From a virus (taxonomy: Duplodnaviria; Caudoviricetes): a stretch of DNA of 64,000 nucleotides. The stretch is taken from positions 5,351-69,350 of the IMG/VR virus record IMGVR_UViG_3300008255_000135. One strand, given 5' to 3'. Positions 6,730 through 52,626 of the stretch are shown piece by piece. The translations under genes were made by a program, and so were the position numbers. Below the pieces are notes generated by a model, which was not told the origin of the DNA, searched no databases, and worked only from the letters and a program-made list of their open reading frames with translations. Positions within the stretch are counted from its first letter, which is position 1, and every line of letters begins with the position of its first letter.

Positions 6730-7323
6730 TTAGAATGCGGGCTCATCAGGACCCCGCCCGCCACTCTTACCGTATTCGGAGGGGCTTTGGCGAGCCTGCG
6801 CAACATCCATCGGCCGGGCCCGGAGCTCGGCGTTTAGCCGCATCCCTATCGCTGTGAGCATATCGCGCTTTACACGACCCACGTCGCACCAGGCCTTCCC
6901 CGCTTTCACCGCGACTTCCGCGAGGATGTAGGCGGTTCGAGCCTCGGCGTACTCGGGGTCGACGAGGACCGCGGAGTCGATGTCCCCTACCGTCGGGGTT
7001 CGGAGTCGGATCTCCACCCGCTTGTACTTGCGGCCCGCGGCGGCAGCCGTGTTCGCGGCCACATCGTCCGCCGCCCGCTCAGCCCGGAAGGCCTTCTTCG
7101 CCGCCTGGAGAAGCGCCTCCTTGTGGACCAGCTTCAACCTCGCCTCGGTGATCTCGAAGTGCATCTTGGCCTTCAAGTAGGTCTCCTCAGCGAGCACGTA
7201 CTGATGGGCGAAGTGCGCGAGGATCTCCGGGGCCTCGATGAACTCCGCCTCGATGTCGTCGGGGTCGATCGAGAGAAACTTTCGGACCTGCTCGTAGGGG
7301 ATCACGCTGCCACTGTCGTCCAC
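6730..7323 (-). CDS. UvsY-like recombination mediator
   Basis: All-helical; SIDPDDIEAEFIEAPEILAHF and C-terminal KRDML pattern resemble UvsY; GTG start with GGAG RBS. Confidence 0.6.
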   Translation of the reverse strand: MDDSGSVIPYEQVRKFLSIDPDDIEAEFIEAPEILAHFAHQYVLAEETYLKAKMHFEITEARLKLVHKEALLQAAKKAFRAERAADDVAANTAAAAGRKYKRVEIRLRTPTVGDIDSAVLVDPEYAEARTAYILAEVAVKAGKAWCDVGRVKRDMLTAIGMRLNAELRARPMDVAQARQSPSEYGKSGGRGPDEPAF

Positions 7324-9920
7324 TGCAACTCTCCATTCAGCTTGGGGACCTCGACAAGCTGACCCCACCTCGGGCCAGCCTCGACATCCGCCACGATCGG
7401 AACATCACCGCTCCACCACGACTCCATGATCGCCACGCACTGCTCCACGATGTCCTCGAACCAGTCCTCACGGATCTCCAGGATCATCGAGTCGTGCACG
7501 GTGCAGACGACGCGAGCCGGAAGTCGTTCCTCGACCAGCCAGCTCACCACCTCGTTGAGCGACCGGAGCATGTACTCGGCCGCGGAGCCCTGGACCGGGC
7601 TGTTGATGGCGCTGTTTCGCGCGGTGCTGGCCGCGGCCTCGTCCTCACCCGCGATGTCCCACAGCGGACGCCAACGCCCGGGCTCTCCATCGAAGTACGT
7701 GTAGACGTACCCATCCCGGCGACACCGGGCTATCTGGGTCTTGACCCACTGGTCCAGGTCCCCGAACTCGCCCATGATCGAAGCGATCAGGACCTTCGCC
7801 TTCGCCTTCGAGATCCCCAGGTCCTTGGCCAGGGTGCCCGCCCCGAGCCCGTAGAGGGTACCGAAGTTCACGGACTTGGCCGCGGAGCGGTAGGGCTTGA
7901 TCTGATCCTTGTCGTAGCCCTCCATCGTGGCCTGGGGGATCCCCCAGGCTGCCGAGCTGATCAACTCCGCCGTTCGTCGGTGGAGGTCGAGCCCGTCTTG
8001 GAAGACCTTGCACATCACCTTGTCGCCCGAGAGGAGCGCTGCGACGCGATACTCCAGCTGCGAGTAGTCGATCTGCGCGAGACGCCAGCCGGGGGCAGCA
8101 CGGAAGATGTTCTTGACCATCTTCGCCATCACCGGGCTCCGGCTCGGGATGTTCTGCATGTTGGGGTCGCTCGACGAGAACCGGCCCGTGGTGGTCCCGG
8201 TAATGTTGAAGGACCCGTGGATGCGACCATCCCCCCGAATGTGGTCGAGCAGATTCCACGCGTACCGGGAGCGGATCGTGTCGTACTCCTTGTAGGTCAG
8301 CAACGACTCGATCACCGGGTGACGGTCGCGCAGCTTCTCCAGCACGTCAGCCGCGACCGAGGGGAGACCCGTCGCGGTGGTCTCCAAGATCGGAAGCCGG
8401 AGGGTCCCGTAGAGATACTCGGTCAGGGCCTCGCGCTTGGCCGGGTCAGGACACCCCGCGGCGCGCAGCTTGGAGGACCTCTTCTCCAGCTCGGCATCGA
8501 CGAACCGGCCCACGTTTTCGATCTGCGCACGGTCGGCGAGGAACCCCCACCGTTCGATCTGGCCGATGGTCCGCGCCGCGGGCTCCAGCAGCACATCCCA
8601 CGTCCGACGGAGGTTCGAGCGCGAGTTGATGCGCTCCTCCATCACCGTGGAGAGCAGCGAAGTGGCCACCGTGTCCAGCGCGCAGTACCGAGCTCGCAAG
8701 CCGTCGGGGACCACCCCGTACGCGAACGTCATGGTGTCGAGCCCGGGGTACTTGACCGCGGCCTCCAGCGGACGCGGCAGCATCCCCGGCAAGGTGATCA
8801 TCGCCGCCTGCGTCTCCTCGATGGTCCGCGCGATGATGGACACCGCGTCGTCGAGGGCGGTGTCCATCTCCTCCTTGTGGCCTCCCATGCCGACCAGCTC
8901 AGCGCCGTACTGCAACCGGCCCATGGCGTCGGGGTCGTCCAGCTTCCGCCAGATCAGCGTGTCGCCCACGGGCCCGCGCACCTCGGCTCGGATGCGCTTG
9001 TCCTGCCTCACCGCGGAGATATCGACCTTGATGTTGTGGCCCGTCTTCTTGATCGACGCATCCGCGAACAGCTCGACCAACGGCGCGACTACCTCGGGGT
9101 CGTCCAGCCGGTCGACGTTCCAGACGTAGCACTCGGTGGTCCCCGTCGCCGCGATTGCCAGGGTGTCGACCTGGAAATACTCCGTCTGCGAGGGCCCGCT
9201 GTACTCCGTGTCGTAGGTCACCGAGCCATGGGCCCGGAGCCGCTCGACCGCCTCGCGCGAGTCCTCGGGGGTCTCGACCAGCGAGTACAACACGTCCCAC
9301 GGCGGGGGCTTGGGATGCGCCGTCAGAGCCCACCCCAGGTCTTCGATCAGGTGCTCCCGCCGGAAGTCGTTGCGGAGGATGTTCCCGGTGCTCCCGGTGA
9401 CCTCGGCCTGGCACTGGAGCGCCGGCATCATGAACACCTTCGCGCCGTTCGAGAGGTAGGCGTAGCCCCGCCGCGCGCTCAGCGGGGGGACCTTGCGGTT
9501 GAGGAGCGAAAATGTGGCCTGACCTCCGAAGGCGAGGATCCGCGCAGGCTTGATGGCCTCGACTACGCCCGCGAGGTAGGGCCGGCACGCCGCGACCATC
9601 GTGTCCGTCGGCTTGCGCGAACCCGCGGCGCAGCGGATCCCGTAAGTGTAGACCACCGGCCCGTTCCACATCTTCTCCAGCTGCATCCGCAGCCATTGCG
9701 CTGCGTCGCCGGAGAACGCGACGCCGATCGTGTCCTCGTCGCGGGTCGGGTAGGTCCCCACCACGAGCAGCGTGTTCTCGCCGACGGTCCCCTCCGGGGG
9801 GAGACACACCACACGCGCCCCCGAGTGCAGGTCGCAAGCCTGGCACCCGGGGTTGTGGTTCGCGGGGCTGACCAGCTCCACGCCGGACCGCCGCTCCGTG
9901 TAGAGCGGAAGTCGCTTCAC
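7302..9920 (-). CDS. polA: Family A DNA polymerase with N-terminal UDG family-4-like Fe-S domain and 3'-5' exonuclease
   Basis: CQAC...C...C UDG-like domain; exonuclease motifs YDTE, GHNIKVD, YCALD; polymerase motifs DYSQLEYR, RSAAKSVNFGTLYG, VHDS; GTG start overlaps upstream TGA. Confidence 0.95.
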   Translation of the reverse strand: MKRLPLYTERRSGVELVSPANHNPGCQACDLHSGARVVCLPPEGTVGENTLLVVGTYPTRDEDTIGVAFSGDAAQWLRMQLEKMWNGPVVYTYGIRCAAGSRKPTDTMVAACRPYLAGVVEAIKPARILAFGGQATFSLLNRKVPPLSARRGYAYLSNGAKVFMMPALQCQAEVTGSTGNILRNDFRREHLIEDLGWALTAHPKPPPWDVLYSLVETPEDSREAVERLRAHGSVTYDTEYSGPSQTEYFQVDTLAIAATGTTECYVWNVDRLDDPEVVAPLVELFADASIKKTGHNIKVDISAVRQDKRIRAEVRGPVGDTLIWRKLDDPDAMGRLQYGAELVGMGGHKEEMDTALDDAVSIIARTIEETQAAMITLPGMLPRPLEAAVKYPGLDTMTFAYGVVPDGLRARYCALDTVATSLLSTVMEERINSRSNLRRTWDVLLEPAARTIGQIERWGFLADRAQIENVGRFVDAELEKRSSKLRAAGCPDPAKREALTEYLYGTLRLPILETTATGLPSVAADVLEKLRDRHPVIESLLTYKEYDTIRSRYAWNLLDHIRGDGRIHGSFNITGTTTGRFSSSDPNMQNIPSRSPVMAKMVKNIFRAAPGWRLAQIDYSQLEYRVAALLSGDKVMCKVFQDGLDLHRRTAELISSAAWGIPQATMEGYDKDQIKPYRSAAKSVNFGTLYGLGAGTLAKDLGISKAKAKVLIASIMGEFGDLDQWVKTQIARCRRDGYVYTYFDGEPGRWRPLWDIAGEDEAAASTARNSAINSPVQGSAAEYMLRSLNEVVSWLVEERLPARVVCTVHDSMILEIREDWFEDIVEQCVAIMESWWSGDVPIVADVEAGPRWGQLVEVPKLNGELQWTTVAA

Positions 9921-11053
9921 CCCTTCACCGCGATGCCCAGCAAGTTGAGGGCGGACAGGACGCGACGCTCGACCTTCTCCTTGGTCTTCGCCGCCGCGAG
10001 GGCCTTCGAGCGATCTTGGAAGCCCCACATCTGCTCGACCAGCCGGTTGGTGTCCACCCCACCCGCGTGGGTGGAGTCGTTCTCGATCACCCACTGCATC
10101 AGGCGATTGATCTTGCGGCTCTCCAGCACTTCCTCGGGAGGCTCGGGGAGGCTGCCGGCGGGGGCGGGGGCCGAAGGGACACCCGGGTCGACATCGGTGA
10201 CCCCGGGGACCACGCCGTCCGGCTCCACGGGGACGTACTCGATCACCTGGCCCTGCAACCCGATCAGCACGCAGTCCCCCGAGTCGAGGACCACCGACCA
10301 GACCTCGCCATGAACCGTGTCCGCCATCTCCGCCGTCAGCACCTTCTGGCCCTGGTAATCGTCGCCGGGCCGATAATGGACCTGGGACCGGGCTTCTCGC
10401 CGATCGAGATTGCCCTTCTGACCCTGGGGCTGGGACTTGTAGTAGGCGAGCACCTCGTTCGGATCGCGGCCCGGACGCGTGAGTTTCTCCGCGGTCTCTG
10501 CGAGCGACTTCGCCTTTTCCTCCAGGGTGCGGCGAGCGGAGTCGGGTATCTGGGCCCCGAGCTCGACCGCCTGGTTGCTCAGGTCCGGCCCCCAGGGAGG
10601 ACTCGCTTCGGTTGGTGGTTTGGGGTCCACATCTACGCCGCGCTCCTCGTGCGGTGGTGGGGTTGGCGTGACCGGTTTCTGGACCGCCTGCACCTTCGGT
10701 GGTGTCGGTTCTGGGGACTTCCGGTCCGCGACTGGAAGCGTGACCCGTGGCCCGGGGGTGGGCGCGGGCCCAGGACTTGGTGGTGAGGCCGCCTCCGCGC
10801 CGGCGTAGGGAGCCGGGCGGACCACGTCTTGGGGTGCCTGACAGGGATCGGTCTGGCGCTTCTGCTCCACCGCCCACTCACGGAGGGCCACGAGCTGGTC
10901 CAGCTCCATCAGCTGCGCCAACAGGAGCCGCGCCTTCGCGGCCTCGACCCCGCGGATCTCCATCAGCTGCGTGCGATCGTGCCAGACGACCTCGTGGGGC
11001 TCCCCCAACAACTCGAACTCGAACCCGAACACGGTTTGCTTGACTTGTTTCAT
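9917..11053 (-). CDS. Hypothetical protein with Pro-rich linkers
   Basis: 378-aa ORF with 4-nt start/stop overlaps to both primase and polymerase. Confidence 0.8.
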   Translation of the reverse strand: MKQVKQTVFGFEFELLGEPHEVVWHDRTQLMEIRGVEAAKARLLLAQLMELDQLVALREWAVEQKRQTDPCQAPQDVVRPAPYAGAEAASPPSPGPAPTPGPRVTLPVADRKSPEPTPPKVQAVQKPVTPTPPPHEERGVDVDPKPPTEASPPWGPDLSNQAVELGAQIPDSARRTLEEKAKSLAETAEKLTRPGRDPNEVLAYYKSQPQGQKGNLDRREARSQVHYRPGDDYQGQKVLTAEMADTVHGEVWSVVLDSGDCVLIGLQGQVIEYVPVEPDGVVPGVTDVDPGVPSAPAPAGSLPEPPEEVLESRKINRLMQWVIENDSTHAGGVDTNRLVEQMWGFQDRSKALAAAKTKEKVERRVLSALNLLGIAVKG

Positions 11054-11949
11054 TCGGTCTTCTCCGGCACCCGCTCGACGCGGGGACTATCGATCGAAGC
11101 GCGAGCCGCCTTGCGGAGATCCGCCGGGTCGACTCGCCTATCGTTGGGGTCACGCCCCGGCGGAAGTCTTACCGCGCCGGCCCGTATTCCCTCAAGGCGC
11201 AAACGCCACATAAACCGCTCGCCCTCGCGCCAGGCGTCCCCGTCCAGACACACGGCGATCGGCCGCCTCGTCTGCTTCAACACAGCGACGTGGTCCTCGA
11301 TCGGCTTCCCCAGCCCGCCCAAGCAGTCGGGCCAGTAGAGGGCCCCGTCAAGAACCCCCTCCATCAGGAGCGCGGGGTCGTCCGTCTCCTCGGTGAGCGC
11401 AACCTCGTTGAACAGCCGATCCCGGGTCATGCCCGGCGGGTACATGTACGGGGACGGAGCCTTCGGAAACCAACACCGAGCGGTGAACCCCCACCACACC
11501 CCAGCGGCGTCCGTGTGGGGGATGATCAGCCGACCGGCGTAGTCCCCCGTGACCGCAGCGCCCATGCCAACCGCTTCGCGGATAGCCAAGTCGAACCCCC
11601 GACTCTCTGCGTATTGGACCGCGGGTTGCAGGGAGAGGGCTTGTAGCGAGACCTCGGTCCAGAGCGGCTCGAACCAATCGGGAGCCGTCTTCGCGCGGTA
11701 CCCCTCGTGATTGAAGTCCTCGCTCTTGTGGTCGGTGACCCATCCCCCGATCACCCCACGAGTCGCGCAGCGGAAGCACTTGTAGTAGCCGAACGGGAAG
11801 TAGATGGCGAAGGACCCCCGGCGATCTGGCGTCCCCACCTTGGTCACGCAGAACGGGCACTGCGTTCGTGCCCAGCCCGACCGAGCGGGCCGAAGCCCAG
11901 CCACGGCTCCGCGCGCGAGGTCGTCCCGGTAATCGTCGCGCGGGCTCAT
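11050..11949 (-). CDS. DNA primase (zinc finger + TOPRIM)
   Basis: CPFC...CFRC zinc finger; EGVLD and CLDGDA TOPRIM motifs; start MSPRDD at 11949. Confidence 0.9.
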   Translation of the reverse strand: MSPRDDYRDDLARGAVAGLRPARSGWARTQCPFCVTKVGTPDRRGSFAIYFPFGYYKCFRCATRGVIGGWVTDHKSEDFNHEGYRAKTAPDWFEPLWTEVSLQALSLQPAVQYAESRGFDLAIREAVGMGAAVTGDYAGRLIIPHTDAAGVWWGFTARCWFPKAPSPYMYPPGMTRDRLFNEVALTEETDDPALLMEGVLDGALYWPDCLGGLGKPIEDHVAVLKQTRRPIAVCLDGDAWREGERFMWRLRLEGIRAGAVRLPPGRDPNDRRVDPADLRKAARASIDSPRVERVPEKTE

Positions 11950-13307
11950 TGGACCTCGGTGGCGAAGGGACTGAGAGCGGCGACAACTTGGTCCGCCTTC
12001 CAGGCATCCGTGGGGGAGGCCCCAGCCTGCACCCGGGGGGAGATCGTGGTGACTCGGCCGAAGTCCCAATCGGTGGGGATCGGCCCGAGCTCCACATCAC
12101 TAGCGCCCATCTTTTGCTTGCAAAGATAGAGCCAGAACTCTTGCTCCTCCGGGAAGTAGTTGAGGGAAACAACCACCGTGGCGATCCGCCCCTTGTGGCG
12201 ACTGTCCGCCATATCCCCGAGCTTGGCGAACTTCTGCCCGCGTTTTAGCTCCTTGGTCTGACTCGCGGTCGCCACCACGATCGAGTTGTCCTTGGCGATC
12301 GCCACGAGCCCGTTGTAGACGTTGCGCATCACCACGTAGTCGGACCGGTCTCCCGTGGACCCGTCGCCCATCCGGTCGGCGTAGTCGATGGCGACCAAGT
12401 CGACCTTGCGGCCCTCGGCGTCCTCGACCTCCTTGCGCCAGTCGTCGATGTCCGCGGGGGTCGTCAGCCCGGTGTCCAGCTCCTTGACGTAGAGGGAGCC
12501 CAGCCGGTCCATCATCGCGGCGTAGCGCTCCGCGGCTTCCTTGGTCTGCCCGGCGAGGATTCGCTTGAAGGGGATGTTGGTCAGGTCGGCGAAGATCTTG
12601 GCCTTGACCATCGAGACGGGGAGCTCGTTGGTCCCGTAGAGGACCAGCCCACCCTCGCGGAGGTTCGCCCCCGCCATCTGCCCGAGACCCGTCGACTTGC
12701 CCGAGTTCGCGCCACCGAGAAGGACGTACAGCGACTTCCGCGGGACCCCGCCTTCGAGGTAGTCGTCCAAGCGGGGCATCCCCGTGGGGAGCTTCTCGGT
12801 GAGGGTGGAATCCATTTCCCGGAACGAGGCCGCCCCGAGCTTGGACCCCAGCGACGTGTCCACAAACCCGAGCTGGTCGATCCGCTCCAGCCGGCGCCGA
12901 AGCTCGGTCGAGTCGAGCCCCATCAGCGCGTCGCGCAAGGCGTCCCCGCGCATACGCTCGCGTAGCTGCGGGAGGAACACCCCCATCACCTTCTCCATCG
13001 GCGGGAGGTCCTGGTCGAGACAATCTTCCAAGTACCCCAGCGAGAGGAGCGTGTCGTCGAGGGTGATCTTTCCGTCCTCCAGCGACATCTGCCGAAGTTG
13101 CTGAGCCACGACCACAGACGACCCCGGGCCCTCCCCGGTCTCCGTGAAGCACTTCGCGCAGGCTTCGACGATGGTCTGAGCCTCACGGGTGGGGAAGCAG
13201 CTCGACACCACCCCGCCGCGGACCGCCCCGTAGAAGCGGCGATCCCGGACGAGGTAGGCGATCACCGCCCGCTCGAAGTCCGGGTCCAGCGTGTAGGGGT
13301 CGCTCAC
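11946..13307 (-). CDS. dnaB: DnaB-like (SF4) replicative helicase
   Basis: GGANSGKS Walker A, VAIDY Walker B, TASQ motif; alternative start at 13316. Confidence 0.9.
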   Translation of the reverse strand: MSDPYTLDPDFERAVIAYLVRDRRFYGAVRGGVVSSCFPTREAQTIVEACAKCFTETGEGPGSSVVVAQQLRQMSLEDGKITLDDTLLSLGYLEDCLDQDLPPMEKVMGVFLPQLRERMRGDALRDALMGLDSTELRRRLERIDQLGFVDTSLGSKLGAASFREMDSTLTEKLPTGMPRLDDYLEGGVPRKSLYVLLGGANSGKSTGLGQMAGANLREGGLVLYGTNELPVSMVKAKIFADLTNIPFKRILAGQTKEAAERYAAMMDRLGSLYVKELDTGLTTPADIDDWRKEVEDAEGRKVDLVAIDYADRMGDGSTGDRSDYVVMRNVYNGLVAIAKDNSIVVATASQTKELKRGQKFAKLGDMADSRHKGRIATVVVSLNYFPEEQEFWLYLCKQKMGASDVELGPIPTDWDFGRVTTISPRVQAGASPTDAWKADQVVAALSPFATEVQ

Positions 13308-14629
13308 CAGGGCCACCGCCCCGCACGAAACTCCGCCAGATCTCGCGCGTAGCGAGCCTGCATATCACGCCGGCAAAGATCCACTTCGCGGTCAAAATAC
13401 CCTGGCGGGAAGAACGCCGCGACCATGCGATCAACATCTTGCTGAGTCGCCGCCGGATTGCGCATCGCTGCCATGATCTCGGCGCGACAGTCTTTCCAGC
13501 GCTCCAGCAGGAGCTCTAGCCGGTTCGGCATCCAGAAGGGACACCCCCAGTCCCCACCCTGCTCACGACACGGCGCGCGGAGCTGGTCGATCAGACTCGG
13601 GGCGAAGACCTGCTCCAGCCGCGGGGGGACCCACGTGCGGTTCTCGTCGCGCGCTGCGTCCTTGGTGTACTGGAAGAACCACACCGCCCACAGATAGGGG
13701 CTCACTCGGTGGCGTTCGAGGTGGTCCGCGGCTTTGACCAACAGACCCATCTGTCGCTTGCTCGCGCCTCGGGAGAACAGACCCGGGGCCTGGCCGGTGT
13801 GCTTGTGGACCGCAGCTCGGTAGGCGGCCAACAGCATGGCGACTCGGCGGGGGGTCGGGTCCGTCTTCGCCACCTTGGGGCGCGGAGGCGCTTGGTAGTG
13901 ACCGGTGACCTCGGTCGGGCGGACGGGGAAGTGTTCGGGGACCTGAATGTTGCGTGAGCCGCGCGCTTGCGCGTGGCCTTTCCCCTTTAGGGGAAAGCTC
14001 GTCCCTACATCTCCTGCCACTCCTACAGGCGCCGAGTCCTCCGGCGAGGTTGGCGTCGCAGGATGGGCTGGGGGCCTGTCTTCGGGACTTGCGGCTACCG
14101 CGCAACAGGCGACGCGAGGGGCGACGACCCGGCGACGGGCGGCGTTATTGTACGGGATAGGGGTGCTTTGGCTGACAGCCCTTGCCACCGCTGGCGGAAC
14201 GCGCACATACTCAGTGTGCTGTTCACGCACCCCCATGACTGCGCGAATCCGACACCCCCCGCCGGTCCGCCGGCCGGTGTTCACGACCAGGCCGATTTCC
14301 TCCAACCGGCGGAGGTACGCGCGCACCATCCGCTCGCTGGGGGCCTTTCGGGGCTTGGTCAGCTTCGCCCACCACTCCCCGAGCTTGCGCGCGAGGGTCG
14401 CCACTTTGAACCGGACCAGCCCGTGGCGGTCCCGGACTTGAAGTAGGTTCCGGTACACGCTCCAGGCGTTCGACCCCAGGTACTCGGCGAGCGAGCGGCG
14501 ATGCACCCGGACGGATCCGCGGTCGGGGTCGTTTTCAGTCGGAAAAGGGTTGGCGTAGCTTGGGGAAAGAGATACACTTCCGATTGTCACAGCATCGGCT
14601 TTCTTGTGGGTGCGTGGTAACACCCACAA
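13304..14629 (-). CDS. Putative replication initiator / helicase-loading protein with N-terminal winged HTH; start uncertain (14629 TTG, 14590 GTG or later)
   Basis: SERMVRAYLRRLEEIGLV wHTH-like segment; coupled directly upstream of the helicase and primase. Confidence 0.55.
   Translation of the reverse strand: MWVLPRTHKKADAVTIGSVSLSPSYANPFPTENDPDRGSVRVHRRSLAEYLGSNAWSVYRNLLQVRDRHGLVRFKVATLARKLGEWWAKLTKPRKAPSERMVRAYLRRLEEIGLVVNTGRRTGGGCRIRAVMGVREQHTEYVRVPPAVARAVSQSTPIPYNNAARRRVVAPRVACCAVAASPEDRPPAHPATPTSPEDSAPVGVAGDVGTSFPLKGKGHAQARGSRNIQVPEHFPVRPTEVTGHYQAPPRPKVAKTDPTPRRVAMLLAAYRAAVHKHTGQAPGLFSRGASKRQMGLLVKAADHLERHRVSPYLWAVWFFQYTKDAARDENRTWVPPRLEQVFAPSLIDQLRAPCREQGGDWGCPFWMPNRLELLLERWKDCRAEIMAAMRNPAATQQDVDRMVAAFFPPGYFDREVDLCRRDMQARYARDLAEFRAGRWPW
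14550..14578 (+). promoter_or_regulatory. Sigma70-type promoter, antisense to the replication operon
   Basis: TTGGCG-17 bp-TACACT. Confidence 0.65.
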
Positions 14630-14663
14630 ACTGACCCCGGGGGTTCGCCCTCGGGGTTTTTTT
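14585..14663 (+). ncRNA. Candidate ~80-nt antisense (countertranscript) RNA
   Basis: Lies between the promoter above and an intrinsic terminator; hairpin TTGTGGGTG/CACCCACAA at 14604-14629. Confidence 0.6.
14634..14663 (+). terminator. Intrinsic terminator, plus strand
   Basis: ACCCCGGGGG-TTCG-CCCTCGGGGT stem-loop followed by a run of 7 T. Confidence 0.85.
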
Positions 14664-14704
14664 GTTGTTGGGGGAGCGAGTGTGGCGGGTCGGGCGACCC
14701 ACCG

Positions 14705-15184
14705 TCAAGGGAGGTAACGCCGCACCAGCGCGTCGTTGACCTGGGCCGGGGTAGGGAGTTGGTGGAGGGCGAGGCGGGGGTCCCGGATCCGCGACGCCGC
14801 CGGGGGCGGGACCAAGAGGAGCTCGACCCGCTCGTCGCCCTCGCAGAGGCCCAGCCGCGCGGGCTGGACCTTCAAGAGCAGGTACCTCCGCGCGAGCTCC
14901 AGCAGCTCACGCGCATCAGCACACCGCGCGAGCGCGGCGAAGCGGACCCCGTGGAAGTGGGGGTAGGCGACGCGGGCCTGCACGACCCGGATCAGGTCCA
15001 CCGTGGTCAGCTCGCCGAACTGCCGCACGAGCAGGGATCGGCGGATGGGGACCAGCGGTTGTCCCGACCCCACCCAGTGGGCTTGATCGTAGAGGTCGCG
15101 GAGGACCTTGTCGTCCTCGGTCAACGCGTCGGGCCCTACCGGGGGGTCGGCCATCAGGGCCTCCAAGAGGAGCTCACTTGCCAT
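14705..15184 (-). CDS. Hypothetical protein
   Basis: ORF overlapping the helicase stop; alternative start at 15196. Confidence 0.7.
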   Translation of the reverse strand: MASELLLEALMADPPVGPDALTEDDKVLRDLYDQAHWVGSGQPLVPIRRSLLVRQFGELTTVDLIRVVQARVAYPHFHGVRFAALARCADARELLELARRYLLLKVQPARLGLCEGDERVELLLVPPPAASRIRDPRLALHQLPTPAQVNDALVRRYLP

Positions 15185-16691
15185 CGAGGACCCCATACTT
15201 CACGGCTTCGATCGGGGCGAGTACATGCACGGGGTAACCCTCCATCTGGTAGCTCTCCATCCGCGACTTCGAGTGGTCCTCGAACCACTTCATCCGGGTC
15301 TTTCGCGCCCGCTTTGTTGCGGCGCTGACCTCCTCGGGGTCCTGGTCGTAGATCTCCCAGACCTCGACCTCGTCTTTCACGAGCGCCCCCGCCGAGTCGT
15401 GGACCACACGAGTACCACGTCCCACGCGTTGCACGGCTTCGATGTTGCTGGCGCCCGCTGTCCCAATGATCAACGAGGCCAGCTCGGGGATGTCGGTCCC
15501 GGTCTGCCAGACCTTGGTGCAGATCACCACGTCGAGGTCCCCCCACCGCAGCTGGCGGATCAGATCTGCCCGGCGCGATTGCGAACACTTCCCGTGGACG
15601 AACTCGACCCGCACCTTCCCCCGGCTGCGCAGCTCCGCGAGGAGCGTCTTCCCGTGGACCTCGCGCTTCACGAACAGGAGCGCGGGGTGGTTGGCCTTCT
15701 CGGCGAGCCGGACCAACACTCGGTTCCGCGCAACGGACTTGACCACGACCTCGGCATAGGCGCCGTTGTAGGTCTTGTTCTTGGGGGGCGTTCCGACCAC
15801 TGGCACAAACCGGATCGTCGGTCGGGAGATCAGCTTGGCGGCGATCAGCTCGGTCGCGGGGACGCGGTAAATCACCTCCCCGAGCGCGCTGATGATGAAC
15901 ATGTTCCGCCGATCTCCGCGGGCGAGCGCGGTCCCGGACATCCCGAACCGGTAGTAGGCGTTCGGGATCGACATGGCGACCCCGTAGAAGTTGTCCGCGG
16001 GGAGCTGATGGACCTCGTCCACGATGAACCCCTGGAAGCCCGCGAGGAACTCGGTGGTCGAGTCGTGGGTGTCCGGCGCCCGGAGACGCGCCGAGAGAGT
16101 CTGGAAGGTGGCCGAGACCACCCGGCACCCGTCGACCTTCCAGACGCCGTCCCCAACCCGTCCGCACGCCTCCCCGGTGCGCTTCTCGTAGCGCTCCGCG
16201 AAGTTGAGCATCAGATCCGCCTCGGGGGCGAGGAAGATCCACCGGATGTCGGGGACCGCCTTGACGATCCCGCACGCGATCTCGGTCTTCCCCGAGCCCG
16301 TCGGCAGCCAGAGAATCCCGCGGGTCCGCGTCAAACACCGCTCTACGGCGCGCAGCTGGAAGGGGGTCCCGTCGAGGAGCTTTCGGTCGGCCAGCCAAGC
16401 GAGGTCGGTGGACGGATCGAACTCGGCGGGGCGCGTCCGCATGTCGAAGACCTGGGTTGGGAACCCTTGCTTCTCCGCCGACCGGAGAACCTTCGCTGTG
16501 AGCCCCGCGGGAAACGACTTCCGATGATAGTTGTACAACCGGCGTTGCTTGGACCCTGAGTAGCCGACCTGGCCATTGGACATGTAGAAGGACTGCGAGC
16601 TGTCCTCGAACTGGAGGTACCCCGTGAGCCAGCCGATCTCCTCGTCCGAGGCCTCTACGCGCGTCTCCTGGTTCGTCAGGAACAGGCGCAT
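15174..16691 (-). CDS. SF2 DExH helicase (UvsW-like)
   Basis: LPTGSGKT, DEVH, SGT, QRVGRGTR; start MRLFLT at 16691. Confidence 0.93.
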   Translation of the reverse strand: MRLFLTNQETRVEASDEEIGWLTGYLQFEDSSQSFYMSNGQVGYSGSKQRRLYNYHRKSFPAGLTAKVLRSAEKQGFPTQVFDMRTRPAEFDPSTDLAWLADRKLLDGTPFQLRAVERCLTRTRGILWLPTGSGKTEIACGIVKAVPDIRWIFLAPEADLMLNFAERYEKRTGEACGRVGDGVWKVDGCRVVSATFQTLSARLRAPDTHDSTTEFLAGFQGFIVDEVHQLPADNFYGVAMSIPNAYYRFGMSGTALARGDRRNMFIISALGEVIYRVPATELIAAKLISRPTIRFVPVVGTPPKNKTYNGAYAEVVVKSVARNRVLVRLAEKANHPALLFVKREVHGKTLLAELRSRGKVRVEFVHGKCSQSRRADLIRQLRWGDLDVVICTKVWQTGTDIPELASLIIGTAGASNIEAVQRVGRGTRVVHDSAGALVKDEVEVWEIYDQDPEEVSAATKRARKTRMKWFEDHSKSRMESYQMEGYPVHVLAPIEAVKYGVLDGK

Positions 16692-16695
16692 GGGG

Positions 16696-16941
16696 TTAGA
16701 GTCCGAACGCGGCGGCGGCCTGGGGCCCGACGTACTTGACCACGCTGGCCAGCTTGACGTAGCGGGCTGCCCCCACCTGGGTCCCTTCGATCTTGGAATC
16801 GTCCAGCCACCGATAGACGGTGCTCGGCGCGACGTGGAGGCTTGCGGCGACATCCGGGACTGGGTGATAGCCGCGCTTCTTCATCGCGGCGATTTGGTCG
16901 TCACGGTACACGCGACGGGATTTTTCGGTCTTCTTTGCCAT
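16696..16941 (-). CDS. Small HTH DNA-binding protein (excisionase / HTH_17-like)
   Basis: VPDVAASLHVAPSTVYRWL helix-turn-helix followed by a wing. Confidence 0.8.
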   Translation of the reverse strand: MAKKTEKSRRVYRDDQIAAMKKRGYHPVPDVAASLHVAPSTVYRWLDDSKIEGTQVGAARYVKLASVVKYVGPQAAAAFGL

Positions 16942-21530: not shown

Positions 21531-21559
21531 TTTACACACTGCAAAAGATGGGGTAGACT
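21531..21559 (+). promoter_or_regulatory. Sigma70-type promoter giving a probably leaderless vWA mRNA
   Basis: TTTACA-17 bp-TAGACT, then 6 nt to the ATG at 21566. Confidence 0.7.
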
Positions 21560-21565
21560 CCCGCT

Positions 21566-23125
21566 ATGACCACCCAGCTAACACCCGCACAAAAGTTGTC
21601 CGCGGCCCGCTATCGCGCGTGCTTTGTTCACGCGCCTTACCTGGCGGTGGCGATCAACAACATGATCCCCACGATTCAAGCGGACTTCCCAAGTTTCGCA
21701 ATCTCGGAGACCCTCCACCTGATTCTCGGGGAGAAGTGCCTGAATGAGTGGACCGTGGATCAGATCGCATGGGCGCTGATCCACGAGGTCTCGCACCCGC
21801 TCCGCAACCACTTCTCACGCGCGAAGCGGATGGGGGTCTCGGCCTCGGACGCGGCGATCGTCAACGCCTGCCAAGACGCCGAGATCAACGACGACTTCCC
21901 CGGAGACCCCAAGAAGTGCTTGCCGGAGGGCTTCTGCTGGCTGCCGGCCGACCTCGACAACCAGGAGCCGGGGAAGCTGTGGGAGGAATACTACAACAAC
22001 CTACCCAAGAACGGCGCCGGCCAGAAGTTCATCCCCGGACACCCCGAGCTGGGGGAGGACAGGAAGGACCAGCAAGGACCCGGCAACCCGGGCGCCCGCG
22101 GGACGAAACCTGGCTTGCCCGAGGAAGGCGGCCAGTGTGGGTCCGGTGCCACGGGGGTGCCCGTCGACGGCGAGCCGGAGGCGGCCGAGGGAACGGGCCA
22201 CGCGGGCAAGTCGGAGGCCGAGATCTCGCGCATTCGGGAGCAGGTCGCCGCCGAGGTCCAGAACCAAGCGCAGCAAGGGCGCGGGTCGGTCCCGGCGGGA
22301 TGGCTGCGCTGGTCGGAGGAGTACCTCAAACCCCCCACGATCCCATGGCAGCAAAAGCTCCGCCGGGCCGCTCGTCGCGGGTTCGCGCATCGTGCGGGGC
22401 AGACGGACTACCGGTATGACCGGCCGTCGCGGCGTCAGTGGGGGGTGGGCATCGGCCCCGGACACCCGATCTTGCCCCGGATGTACGCCCCGATCCCCGT
22501 GGTCAAGGGCGCGTTCGACACGAGCGGCAGCATGGACCAGGAGGCGATCAGGACCAGCCTCTCGGAGTGGAAGGCCATCATGAAGGAGCTGAGCCTGCCC
22601 CTGGAGATCTACGCCTGCGATGCTGCGGTTCACTCGGCCGTCAAGGTGCGGACGATCCGCGAAGCCATGGCGGCGATGCGCGGGGGTGGCGGAACCGACT
22701 TCCGCCCCATCTTCAAGGCGGTCAAGGCCGCCGGCCCAGACCCGGACGTGCTCGCCATCTTCACCGATGGGGACGGCCCTGCCCCCGAGGTCAATCCCCT
22801 GCCCCGGACCCGGATCTTGTGGGTGTTGGTGGATTCGTGCTGGGGGTCCACGGTACCGTACAGCTCCAAGGGGAAGCCCGTCACCTACGGGGAGATCATT
22901 CGGATGGATCCCCCGAGCCTGAGAAACATCATGCGCATTCTAGTCAAAGTTTTGCACCCCGAGAATGGCAAGGGCCCCACGGAGTGGGAGGTCAAACGCC
23001 AGTACATCACGACCTACAAGGAATACTGCGGGCTCTCCTCTGAGGAGCTGGCCTACACCCGGGTGGCGTTCCTGGGGGACGACGAGAATCCCAAGGAGTT
23101 CGACCGGTCCGCGGAGTATGATTGA
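21566..23125 (+). CDS. DUF2201-type metallopeptidase + vWA domain protein (MoxR partner)
   Basis: HEVSH (HExxH), DAEIND, DTSGSM MIDAS motif, GGGGTDF, FTDG. Confidence 0.92.
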   Translation: MTTQLTPAQKLSAARYRACFVHAPYLAVAINNMIPTIQADFPSFAISETLHLILGEKCLNEWTVDQIAWALIHEVSHPLRNHFSRAKRMGVSASDAAIVNACQDAEINDDFPGDPKKCLPEGFCWLPADLDNQEPGKLWEEYYNNLPKNGAGQKFIPGHPELGEDRKDQQGPGNPGARGTKPGLPEEGGQCGSGATGVPVDGEPEAAEGTGHAGKSEAEISRIREQVAAEVQNQAQQGRGSVPAGWLRWSEEYLKPPTIPWQQKLRRAARRGFAHRAGQTDYRYDRPSRRQWGVGIGPGHPILPRMYAPIPVVKGAFDTSGSMDQEAIRTSLSEWKAIMKELSLPLEIYACDAAVHSAVKVRTIREAMAAMRGGGGTDFRPIFKAVKAAGPDPDVLAIFTDGDGPAPEVNPLPRTRILWVLVDSCWGSTVPYSSKGKPVTYGEIIRMDPPSLRNIMRILVKVLHPENGKGPTEWEVKRQYITTYKEYCGLSSEELAYTRVAFLGDDENPKEFDRSAEYD

Positions 23126-51924: not shown

Positions 51925-51938
51925 GGGGCCACGATAGC

Positions 51939-51970
51939 AAAAGAAGCGGCCCCGGTCGCCCGGAGCCGCT
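51939..51970 (-). terminator. Intrinsic terminator
   Basis: AGCGGCTCCGG-GCGA-CCGGGGCCGCT followed by TCTTTT on the minus strand. Confidence 0.75.
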
Positions 51971-52553: not shown

Positions 52554-52594
52554 GCCCGCGGTTCTCTCCGCGGATTGTGTGAGTTTCAGGAACG

Positions 52595-52626
52595 AAAATG
52601 GGGGCTGACCCCTCGGTCAGCCCCCA
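52595..52626 (-). terminator. Intrinsic terminator after the capsid block
   Basis: 12-bp perfect stem TGGGGGCTGACC/GGTCAGCCCCCA, then TTTTCGTT on the minus strand. Confidence 0.8.

Follow-up and report, generated by a model that had tools for sequence, protein, structure and literature searches.

We describe here a putative antisense RNA gene in a 64,000-nucleotide stretch of DNA from an uncultured tailed phage (Duplodnaviria; Caudoviricetes), hereafter the window, which comprises bases 5351-69350 of the 69,350-bp IMG/VR virus record IMGVR_UViG_3300008255_000135 (completeness estimate 64%). The candidate is a self-contained transcription unit opposite the initiation region of the first gene of a replication operon, hereafter the target gene, and the conservation of its position in related genomes, together with the joint absence of its elements from outgroups, strongly supports its existence as a unit. 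We also think it probable, with moderate confidence, that its product is a cis-antisense countertranscript that would block translation of the operon's first gene.

The predicted antisense unit and the gene start that it faces

The target gene (428 aa) lies at 13304-14590 on the minus strand. Every plausible gene between ~1.2 and 20 kb of the window is on that strand, and the gene layout thus bears out the original prediction, made from the DNA alone, of a plus-strand unit set in an all-minus-strand region. The three elements that it named, a promoter TTGGCG-17-TACACT, a 9-bp hairpin and a UUCG-capped terminator with a run of seven T, can all be read from the sequence. The -35 element TTGGCG (14550-14555, plus strand) lies over codons 12-14 (Y-A-N) of the target gene and is separated by a 17-nt spacer from the -10 element TACACT (14573-14578, plus strand), which is encoded by the rare codons AGT GTA (S5 V6). 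This is the sole match to TTGnCn-N17-TAnnnT on either strand of the 64 kb, and it ranks second of ~128,000 window positions by a weighted consensus score that was picked after the motif had been seen. In this genome GTA accounts for 3.7% of Val codons and AGT for 7.2% of Ser codons, and the GC content of third codon positions (GC3) is 0.30 over the first 10 codons of the target gene compared with 0.84 genome-wide; the rare-codon -10 and the low GC3 point to a constraint at the nucleotide level within the coding sequence. A second plus-strand site within the target gene and antisense to it, at 14182-14211 (TTGCCA-18-CATACT), matches the consensus at 9/12 positions; its position is not conserved in any relative and it is probably a chance occurrence.

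Beyond the promoter lies a stem-loop, SL1 (14604-14629, plus strand; CGUGGUAA), with an 8-nt loop and a 9-bp stem in which TTGTGGGTG (14604-14612) pairs with CACCCACAA (14621-14629). It is followed by an intrinsic terminator facing the antisense direction (14633-14663, plus strand), whose hairpin (14633-14658) has 11 pairs, eight of them G-C, closed by a UUCG loop and trailed by T7 at 14657-14663. Our terminator scan ranked this element first, and among the four strict intrinsic terminators of the window (hairpin energy no weaker than -12 kcal/mol, hairpin length up to 32 nt, and 6 or more T in 8) no other is on the plus strand. Placing the 5' end 7 nt past the -10 element (give or take 2 nt) predicts an RNA of ~79 nt (14585-14663, plus strand) that would consist, in order, of a 19-nt largely unpaired 5' tail, SL1, the terminator hairpin and a U7 tail, and that would be complementary to the GTG at 14590, to a Shine-Dalgarno (SD)-like GAAAG (14599-14603) and to nearly the whole mRNA leader. 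An 82-nt version of the predicted RNA folds at -38.6 kcal/mol (z = -4.2 against shuffled sequences). Neither the window region nor the corresponding regions of five relatives gave a match at the gathering score of any Rfam family, antisense families such as ctRNA_pND324, ctRNA_pT181, CopA, RNAI and OOP included; the best matches had E = 0.5-0.7 and belonged to unrelated families.

The original prediction laid the RNA over two candidate starts of the target gene, a TTG at 14629, at which the longest open reading frame opens, and the GTG at 14590. The outline of the RNA and the GTG hold; the TTG is rejected as the start, since in an alignment of eight sequences the ATG starts of the homologues align with GTG 14590 instead, in the pattern M-x-x-[S/T/N]-V. 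Its further claim that the stems would occlude the TTG in the mRNA is accordingly moot. The gene caller's choice, GTG 14506 (protein P0001, 400 aa), can also be set aside, as BLASTP homology to P0002 (41% identical) runs 28 residues further upstream. GTG 14590 is thus the most likely start, and it heads a plausible translation-initiation region (14588-14605, minus strand) formed by an SD-like AAGAAAG at 14605-14599, an 8-nt spacer and the GTG itself (14590-14588); a GAAAG motif stands 9-18 nt upstream of the start in 5/6 leaders of the family members discussed below. Gene callers place starts too far downstream both here (28 codons, at 14506) and in one relative (46 codons, at L004:898), which is probably due to the atypical composition of the first codons that results from carrying the antisense promoter.

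The mRNA would begin near 14672, from a predicted sense promoter TTGACG-18-CACACT (14679-14708, minus strand) for which 0.01 chance matches are expected in the window; the TGA stop of the upstream gene sits within its -35 element. The sense and antisense promoters are convergent and lie ~87-100 bp apart. A palindrome at 14685-14704 (GGTGGGTCG/CGACCCGCC) had been described as a further hairpin of the leader. The palindrome is there, but it lies outside the mRNA leader because it falls between the -35 and -10 elements of the predicted sense promoter, ahead of the point at which the mRNA would begin. An operator role is possible; a comparable palindrome is found in only one relative (L005), and the element is not conserved. 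A search of IMG/VR DNA with the pattern TTGACG-N18-CACACT-N7-9-CCAA gave 20 matches, none of which encodes a relative by tblastn, and these are put down to chance.

Conservation of the unit among relatives

Relatives of the target protein were collected by a hidden Markov model (HMM) search of 1.84 billion cluster representatives, which returned 133 at E <= 1e-3 and seven at E <= 1e-30, and DNA was obtained for nine distinct relatives. P0001 itself falls in a 90%-identity cluster of 4 members. Degenerate-pattern scans, built on the single protein and on alignments A1-A3, of which A2 was too divergent for use, found no relative in IMG/VR, JGI metagenomes or GTDB genomes, and a word-indexed homologue search with the profile returned only P0001 and P0008. 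Five relatives (L002, L004, L005, L006 and L007; 27-42% protein identity, 45-65% GC) share the anatomy of the window, namely an antisense promoter over the first codons, an antisense-facing terminator in the leader and a facing sense promoter just beyond it. Their predicted antisense promoters are TTGGCA-17-TACAGT (L002), TTGCCT-17-TACACT (L004), TTGTCG-17-TACACT (L005), TTGAAA-17-TACGTT (L006) and either TTGTCA-18-TATTCT or TTGTCA-16-CATATT (L007), with the -10 element ending 3-15 nt into the coding sequence. At each of these loci the site is the best promoter-like site or close to it, its rank over the positions of the two strands being in the top 5e-5 to 3.6e-4, and 0.003-0.027 such sites would be expected per 76-nt target. 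It is the best antisense site over gene and leader in the five high-GC genomes, and our promoter scan lists it in L002, as the only match in 2 kb, and in L007. The codons that carry the -10 element also recur: they are AGT GTA in the window, L004 and L005, ACT GTA in L002 and AAC GTA in L006.

All five relatives also have, 36-182 nt upstream of the start, a compact GC-rich hairpin followed by an antisense-facing T-run, which the terminator scan puts first in L004, L005 and L006. In 238 kb of strand sequence we count 12 strict terminators, and the leader element supplies six of them; with the other six as background (~0.025 per kb), a 200-nt leader would be expected to contain a correctly oriented one ~0.005 times per genome. 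Stem sequences vary among the genomes with pairing retained, the T-run is followed by TTGG in all six, and in none of the six does the sense side of the hairpin have a T-run. SL1 has no such support from covariation, as the RNAs cannot be aligned there; MAFFT failed to bring the six terminators into structural register, and the retained pairing is thus given here with no formal pair count. In L002 (5969-5987, minus strand) another small hairpin with a T-run, CTCGAGATCAGATCTCGGG TTTTTG, lies within ~25 nt after the antisense promoter; it could terminate or attenuate the antisense RNA early, or else be its 5' stem-loop.

The variability of the RNA itself bears on where it might act. Small phage RNAs with host targets are known, and the predicted RNA might likewise act mainly in trans, on a host mRNA or another phage mRNA, with its overlap of the leader being incidental. 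Action on such a target would call for a conserved seed, however, and what is conserved here is the position of the unit relative to the gene start and not the RNA sequence, the six RNAs being unalignable outside the terminator. We consider action in trans extremely unlikely.

Beyond the terminator, a sense promoter-like site follows at a distance of 13-21 nt in 5/6 genomes. The sense promoter-like sites of the relatives are TTGACG-18-CACACT in L002 (identical to that of the window), TTGACG-18-TAACCT in L006, TTGAAA-17-TACGGT in L007, TTGTGC-18-TAGGGT in L005 and TTGGCC-17-TAGGGT in L004. The predicted antisense RNAs of the six genomes are 78, 177, 91, 105, 72 and 175 nt long, with 1-4 stem-loops and the terminator at the end.

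This arrangement is relevant to an alternative in which promoter and terminator are real and control is exerted by transcriptional interference between convergent polymerases, which would start ~87 bp apart and run into or displace each other, with the short RNA as a by-product. The facing promoters and their close spacing would suit such a mechanism, and in lambda the convergent promoter pO lowers transcription from pR and so tunes replication initiation (PMC3985674). Against it, a strong terminator just before the sense promoter in 6/6 genomes limits occlusion and suggests that a defined RNA end matters, and interference has no need of stable stem-loops or of a single-stranded 5' tail over the ribosome-binding site. 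The 13-21-nt gap between the terminator and the sense -10 element likewise fits a discrete RNA better than promoter occlusion. Interference on its own is unlikely in our judgement; it is the main rival to a countertranscript, and since the two mechanisms are compatible it could act alongside one.

The four more distant relatives, L008, L010, L011 and L013, lack the antisense promoter and have no strict antisense terminator. There is no gap before the gene in L008 and L011, a different 239-nt gap in L010, which contains only a weak antisense hairpin, and a 68-nt gap in L013. The elements are thus present together in six genomes and absent together from the four outgroups. In L013 the 68-nt gap before the same gene holds a terminator of the opposite, sense-facing orientation (L013:1950-2000; GGGCGGGG...CCCCGCCC, then a T-rich run), which suggests a different way to insulate the gene.

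Several points weigh against a countertranscript, apart from the late choice of the weighted promoter score. The module is present in only six genomes, one of which (L007, 45% GC) is rich in background promoter-like sites. The window promoter matches 8/12 consensus positions, which is below the cut-off of 9/12 in our promoter scan and left it unlisted, and the antisense promoter is under that threshold in 4/6 genomes; moreover, the sigma70-type consensus is an assumption and may not be that of the host. Selection for an unstructured initiation region could account for part of the low GC3 of the first codons. The RNAs do not align in the stretch from promoter to terminator, and neither SL1 nor any specific pairing pathway has covariation behind it. 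The 5' end predicted for L002, L004, L005 and L007 lies 1-4 nt upstream of the ATG, such that the ribosome-binding site is covered while the start codon itself may not be. Finally, two gene callers prefer downstream starts, and if these were correct the RNA would lie wholly within a longer 5' untranslated region.

Some of the same observations could be read as a sign that there is no antisense transcript at all. The A-run and GC-rich hairpin would then be an element of the sense RNA (a 5' stabiliser, a translational operator bound by a protein or a terminator that lacks its U-tract and serves the upstream genes), and the 'promoter' would arise from AT-rich first codons. The hairpin is indeed at the extreme 5' end of the predicted mRNA, low GC is common at gene starts, and both the 8/12 promoter match and the assumed sigma70-type consensus leave room for this view. 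On the other hand, the T-run is on the antisense side in 6/6 genomes, the TTG/TAnnnT pair keeps its 17-nt spacing in 5/6 genomes at protein identities of 27-42%, the rare codons AGT GTA are met again at the equivalent position, and promoter and terminator are lost together in the outgroups. A 5' stabiliser, furthermore, is normally found within a few nucleotides of the 5' end, and not behind 8-15 unpaired A-rich bases. On balance a sense-RNA element seems improbable to us.

Proposed action as a countertranscript

The reading that we favour remains that of a countertranscript. We infer from the elements described above that the unit is transcribed, that its RNA pairs with the target mRNA and lowers translation, and that this serves a biological role. 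The sense promoter (14708-14679) would start the target-gene mRNA near 14672. Around 87 nt downstream, a host-type promoter on the opposite strand, within codons 5-14, would fire back through the start codon, the GAAAG motif and the leader, and transcription from it would halt at the terminator ~10 nt short of the sense mRNA 5' end to yield the ~79-nt RNA. The single-stranded 5' tail of this RNA and its SL1 loop would pair with the leader, and the resulting duplex would hide the ribosome-binding site and start codon, block translation of the first gene and probably leave the mRNA open to attack by a double-strand RNase. The TGA stop of the target gene overlaps the GTG start, at 13307, of a DnaB-like helicase gene (11946-13307, minus strand) in the sequence GTGA, and the two genes are therefore probably translationally coupled; through this overlap the helicase and later genes would be expressed less as well. 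With output of the RNA scaling with template number, the outcome would be a dosage-dependent brake on replisome-gene expression. Attenuation of the pT181 type is argued against by the fact that no leader contains a terminator in the sense direction.

The original prediction likened the unit to plasmid countertranscript RNAs and to lambda OOP RNA, and it is the first of these comparisons that stands. As predicted from sequence, the unit has a promoter on the opposite strand, a rho-independent terminator that would give an RNA shorter than ~200 nt, and complementarity to the ribosome-binding site with an exposed tail or loop, which are the hallmarks of the countertranscript class. The closest layout is that of RNAII of pMV158, which acts on repB in rolling-circle plasmids of Firmicutes and is likewise a short countertranscript, transcribed from a promoter within the leader or 5' region of the rep gene, with a 5' tail over the initiation region, a hairpin and a U-rich end. 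In RNAII the 5' tail measures 17 nt and is followed by one hairpin and a U-tail, and it is the 5' tail, rather than loop-loop kissing, that drives binding and translation inhibition (PMC4485353). The tail of the window RNA is of similar length (19 nt versus 17 nt), whereas the RNA as a whole is longer (~79 nt versus 48 nt) and carries a separate stem-loop besides the terminator hairpin. The two differ in other respects too: there is no sequence or Rfam kinship between them, no CopG-like repressor gene was recognised here, and the antisense promoter is inside the coding sequence, unlike that of pMV158. Moreover, the pMV158 target is a rolling-circle Rep, while here it is a winged-helix protein that matches no family and belongs to a phage of ~90 kb with helicase, primase and PolA of its own.

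ColE2 RNAI, R1 CopA/CopT and pSK41 RNAI resemble the window unit in their convergent promoters, complementarity to the rep leader, loops of 6-8 nt and dosage-dependent negative control (PMC5703833). This likeness is by analogy only, no homology having been found, and the leader peptide, pseudoknot and sense attenuator of those systems are not seen at the window locus; none of the six leaders has a sense T-run. Among phages, lambda pO/oop also provides a short terminated RNA against the early rightward operon near the replication genes, with convergent promoters that cross-talk (PMC3985674). The layout nevertheless departs from that of oop, since the window promoter is inside a gene of the operon and the RNA covers that gene's own ribosome-binding site and ends before the upstream gene (14705). 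In lambda, oop is antisense to the 3' end of cII, the gene that precedes O, and a unit of that type has its promoter in an intergenic region. Another phage counterpart is the sar RNA of P22, a cis-antisense RNA whose promoter is inside a transcribed region and which pairs with the ribosome-binding site of its target, the antirepressor gene. The window RNA would pair with the ribosome-binding site in the same way, although the target of sar is not a replication gene and there is no sequence relationship between the two. By a term search, the account of RNA-based prophage origins by Wetzel et al. (PMC7157519) speaks of no convergent promoter, terminator or stem-loop and mentions antisense once, and it offers no useful comparison.

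The target protein, the replication operon and the phage

The original prediction placed the target gene at the head of a chain of initiator, helicase, primase and polymerase genes. The gene order is as described, but the name 'initiator' is not borne out by any family match. The target protein has no family in Pfam (E <= 0.01) or PHROGs (E <= 0.001) and no tblastn match among 50,697 phage records, and a Foldseek search of the PDB returned nothing at E <= 0.001, the C-terminal domain not having been searched on its own. The protein is organised as a disordered tail (residues 1-24), a winged helix (27-141), a disordered linker (149-206) and a helical C-terminal domain (210-428), with AlphaFold (AF2) pLDDT values of ~30 for residues 1-24 and above 90 for 27-141 and 210-428. 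The C-terminal domain is all-helical and ends in a conserved G-x-W-x-W. Structural alignment of residues 29-135 with VIA-align gave only generic winged-helix matches at Z = 7.5-9.5 (CRP, MarR, Orc/Cdc6 and many regulators). A winged-helix domain is, then, encoded directly before a replicative helicase gene, and this synteny is found in all relatives; calling the protein a replication initiator draws on gene position and a generic fold, and the label should be taken as putative. Members of the family, whose 133 cluster representatives are unannotated, are almost always encoded between an SNF2/ResIII helicase gene (upstream) and a DnaB-like helicase gene (directly downstream). The disordered N-terminal tail of the AF2 model seems free to carry a DNA signal.

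Proximity to the gene of a presumed origin-binding protein raises the question of whether the RNA, or its transcription, serves a replication origin as primer, R-loop or transcriptional activator, in the manner of ColE1, the T4 origins or lambda. The region is also a local low-GC island (0.49 versus 0.67 +/- 0.05). It is, however, one of ~15 such islands and not the GC minimum of the window, and clean termination and high structure are not expected of a persistent R-loop primer. Nor was a convincing family of iterons or other repeated binding sites detected in 13200-15300, where degenerate sites could have escaped. We regard an origin function as very unlikely.

In the direction of transcription, the genes around the unit are an SNF2/ResIII helicase gene (15174-16853), the upstream 163-aa gene of unassigned function (14705-15196, minus strand), whose synteny is kept in relatives, the target gene, the DnaB-like helicase gene, a primase gene (11050-12069), a gene of unassigned function (9917-11053) and a gene for a DNA polymerase (7302-10877, minus strand) in which an N-terminal uracil-DNA-glycosylase domain is fused to exonuclease and PolA domains. 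The polymerase of L002 (10896-) has a weak Pfam match to Hint_2, which is of intein type, and the SNF2 helicase of L008 (12-2495) has a match to Hom_end_hint; inteins are suggested in both by these matches.

The window as a whole has a GC content of ~67%, and no tRNA genes were found in it. The region is identical in sequence on an 89.5-kb ENA contig (L003; k141_276793, ERZ27293386), and blastn of 13300-15200 against the 50,697 phage records found no nucleotide match. The copy-number or lysogeny control put forward in the original prediction finds no support here. There is no match to an integrase, resolvase or ParA in the 69-kb record, and the degenerate-pattern scan found no prophage relatives among 185,579 GTDB species genomes. 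The phage thus shows no sign of lysogeny, which in a 64%-complete record is no proof of a lytic lifestyle. Two further sets of transcription signals lie elsewhere in the window. The best sigma70-like site of all, TTTACA-17-TAGACT at 21531-21559 (plus strand), ends 6 nt before an ATG at 21566 and fits a leaderless mRNA heading a plus-strand gene block. Two very strong intrinsic terminators ~650 bp apart on the minus strand (51938-51969 and 52591-52625; -22 and -25.5 kcal/mol) are accompanied by a promoter-like TAGACC-17-TACAGT at 52654-52626, directly upstream of the second; such a grouping could be the mark of a gene for a small RNA or of a short transcription unit.

Antisense control of replication proteins is textbook knowledge for plasmids and poorly documented for phages with their own replisome. 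The design is already known from plasmids and a few phages; what is new is an unannotated instance in a new phage lineage, and its value is that of a well-defined candidate rather than of a surprise. It provides a comparatively supported example in an uncultured lineage that has no cultured relative, and with it a testable handle on the dosing of replication proteins. It also illustrates how rare codons can accommodate a promoter within coding sequence, and it puts right the start codon in an unannotated protein family of 133 clusters. A further suggestion, which we put forward as a doubtful possibility, is that the 100-200-nt leader, the facing promoters and the terminator form a clade-specific add-on that was acquired together, with the disordered tail of the protein largely there to carry the rare-codon antisense promoter. 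If this were true, a complete and translationally coupled replisome operon would be under a dosage-sensing RNA brake of the plasmid type in a phage that shows no signs of lysogeny.

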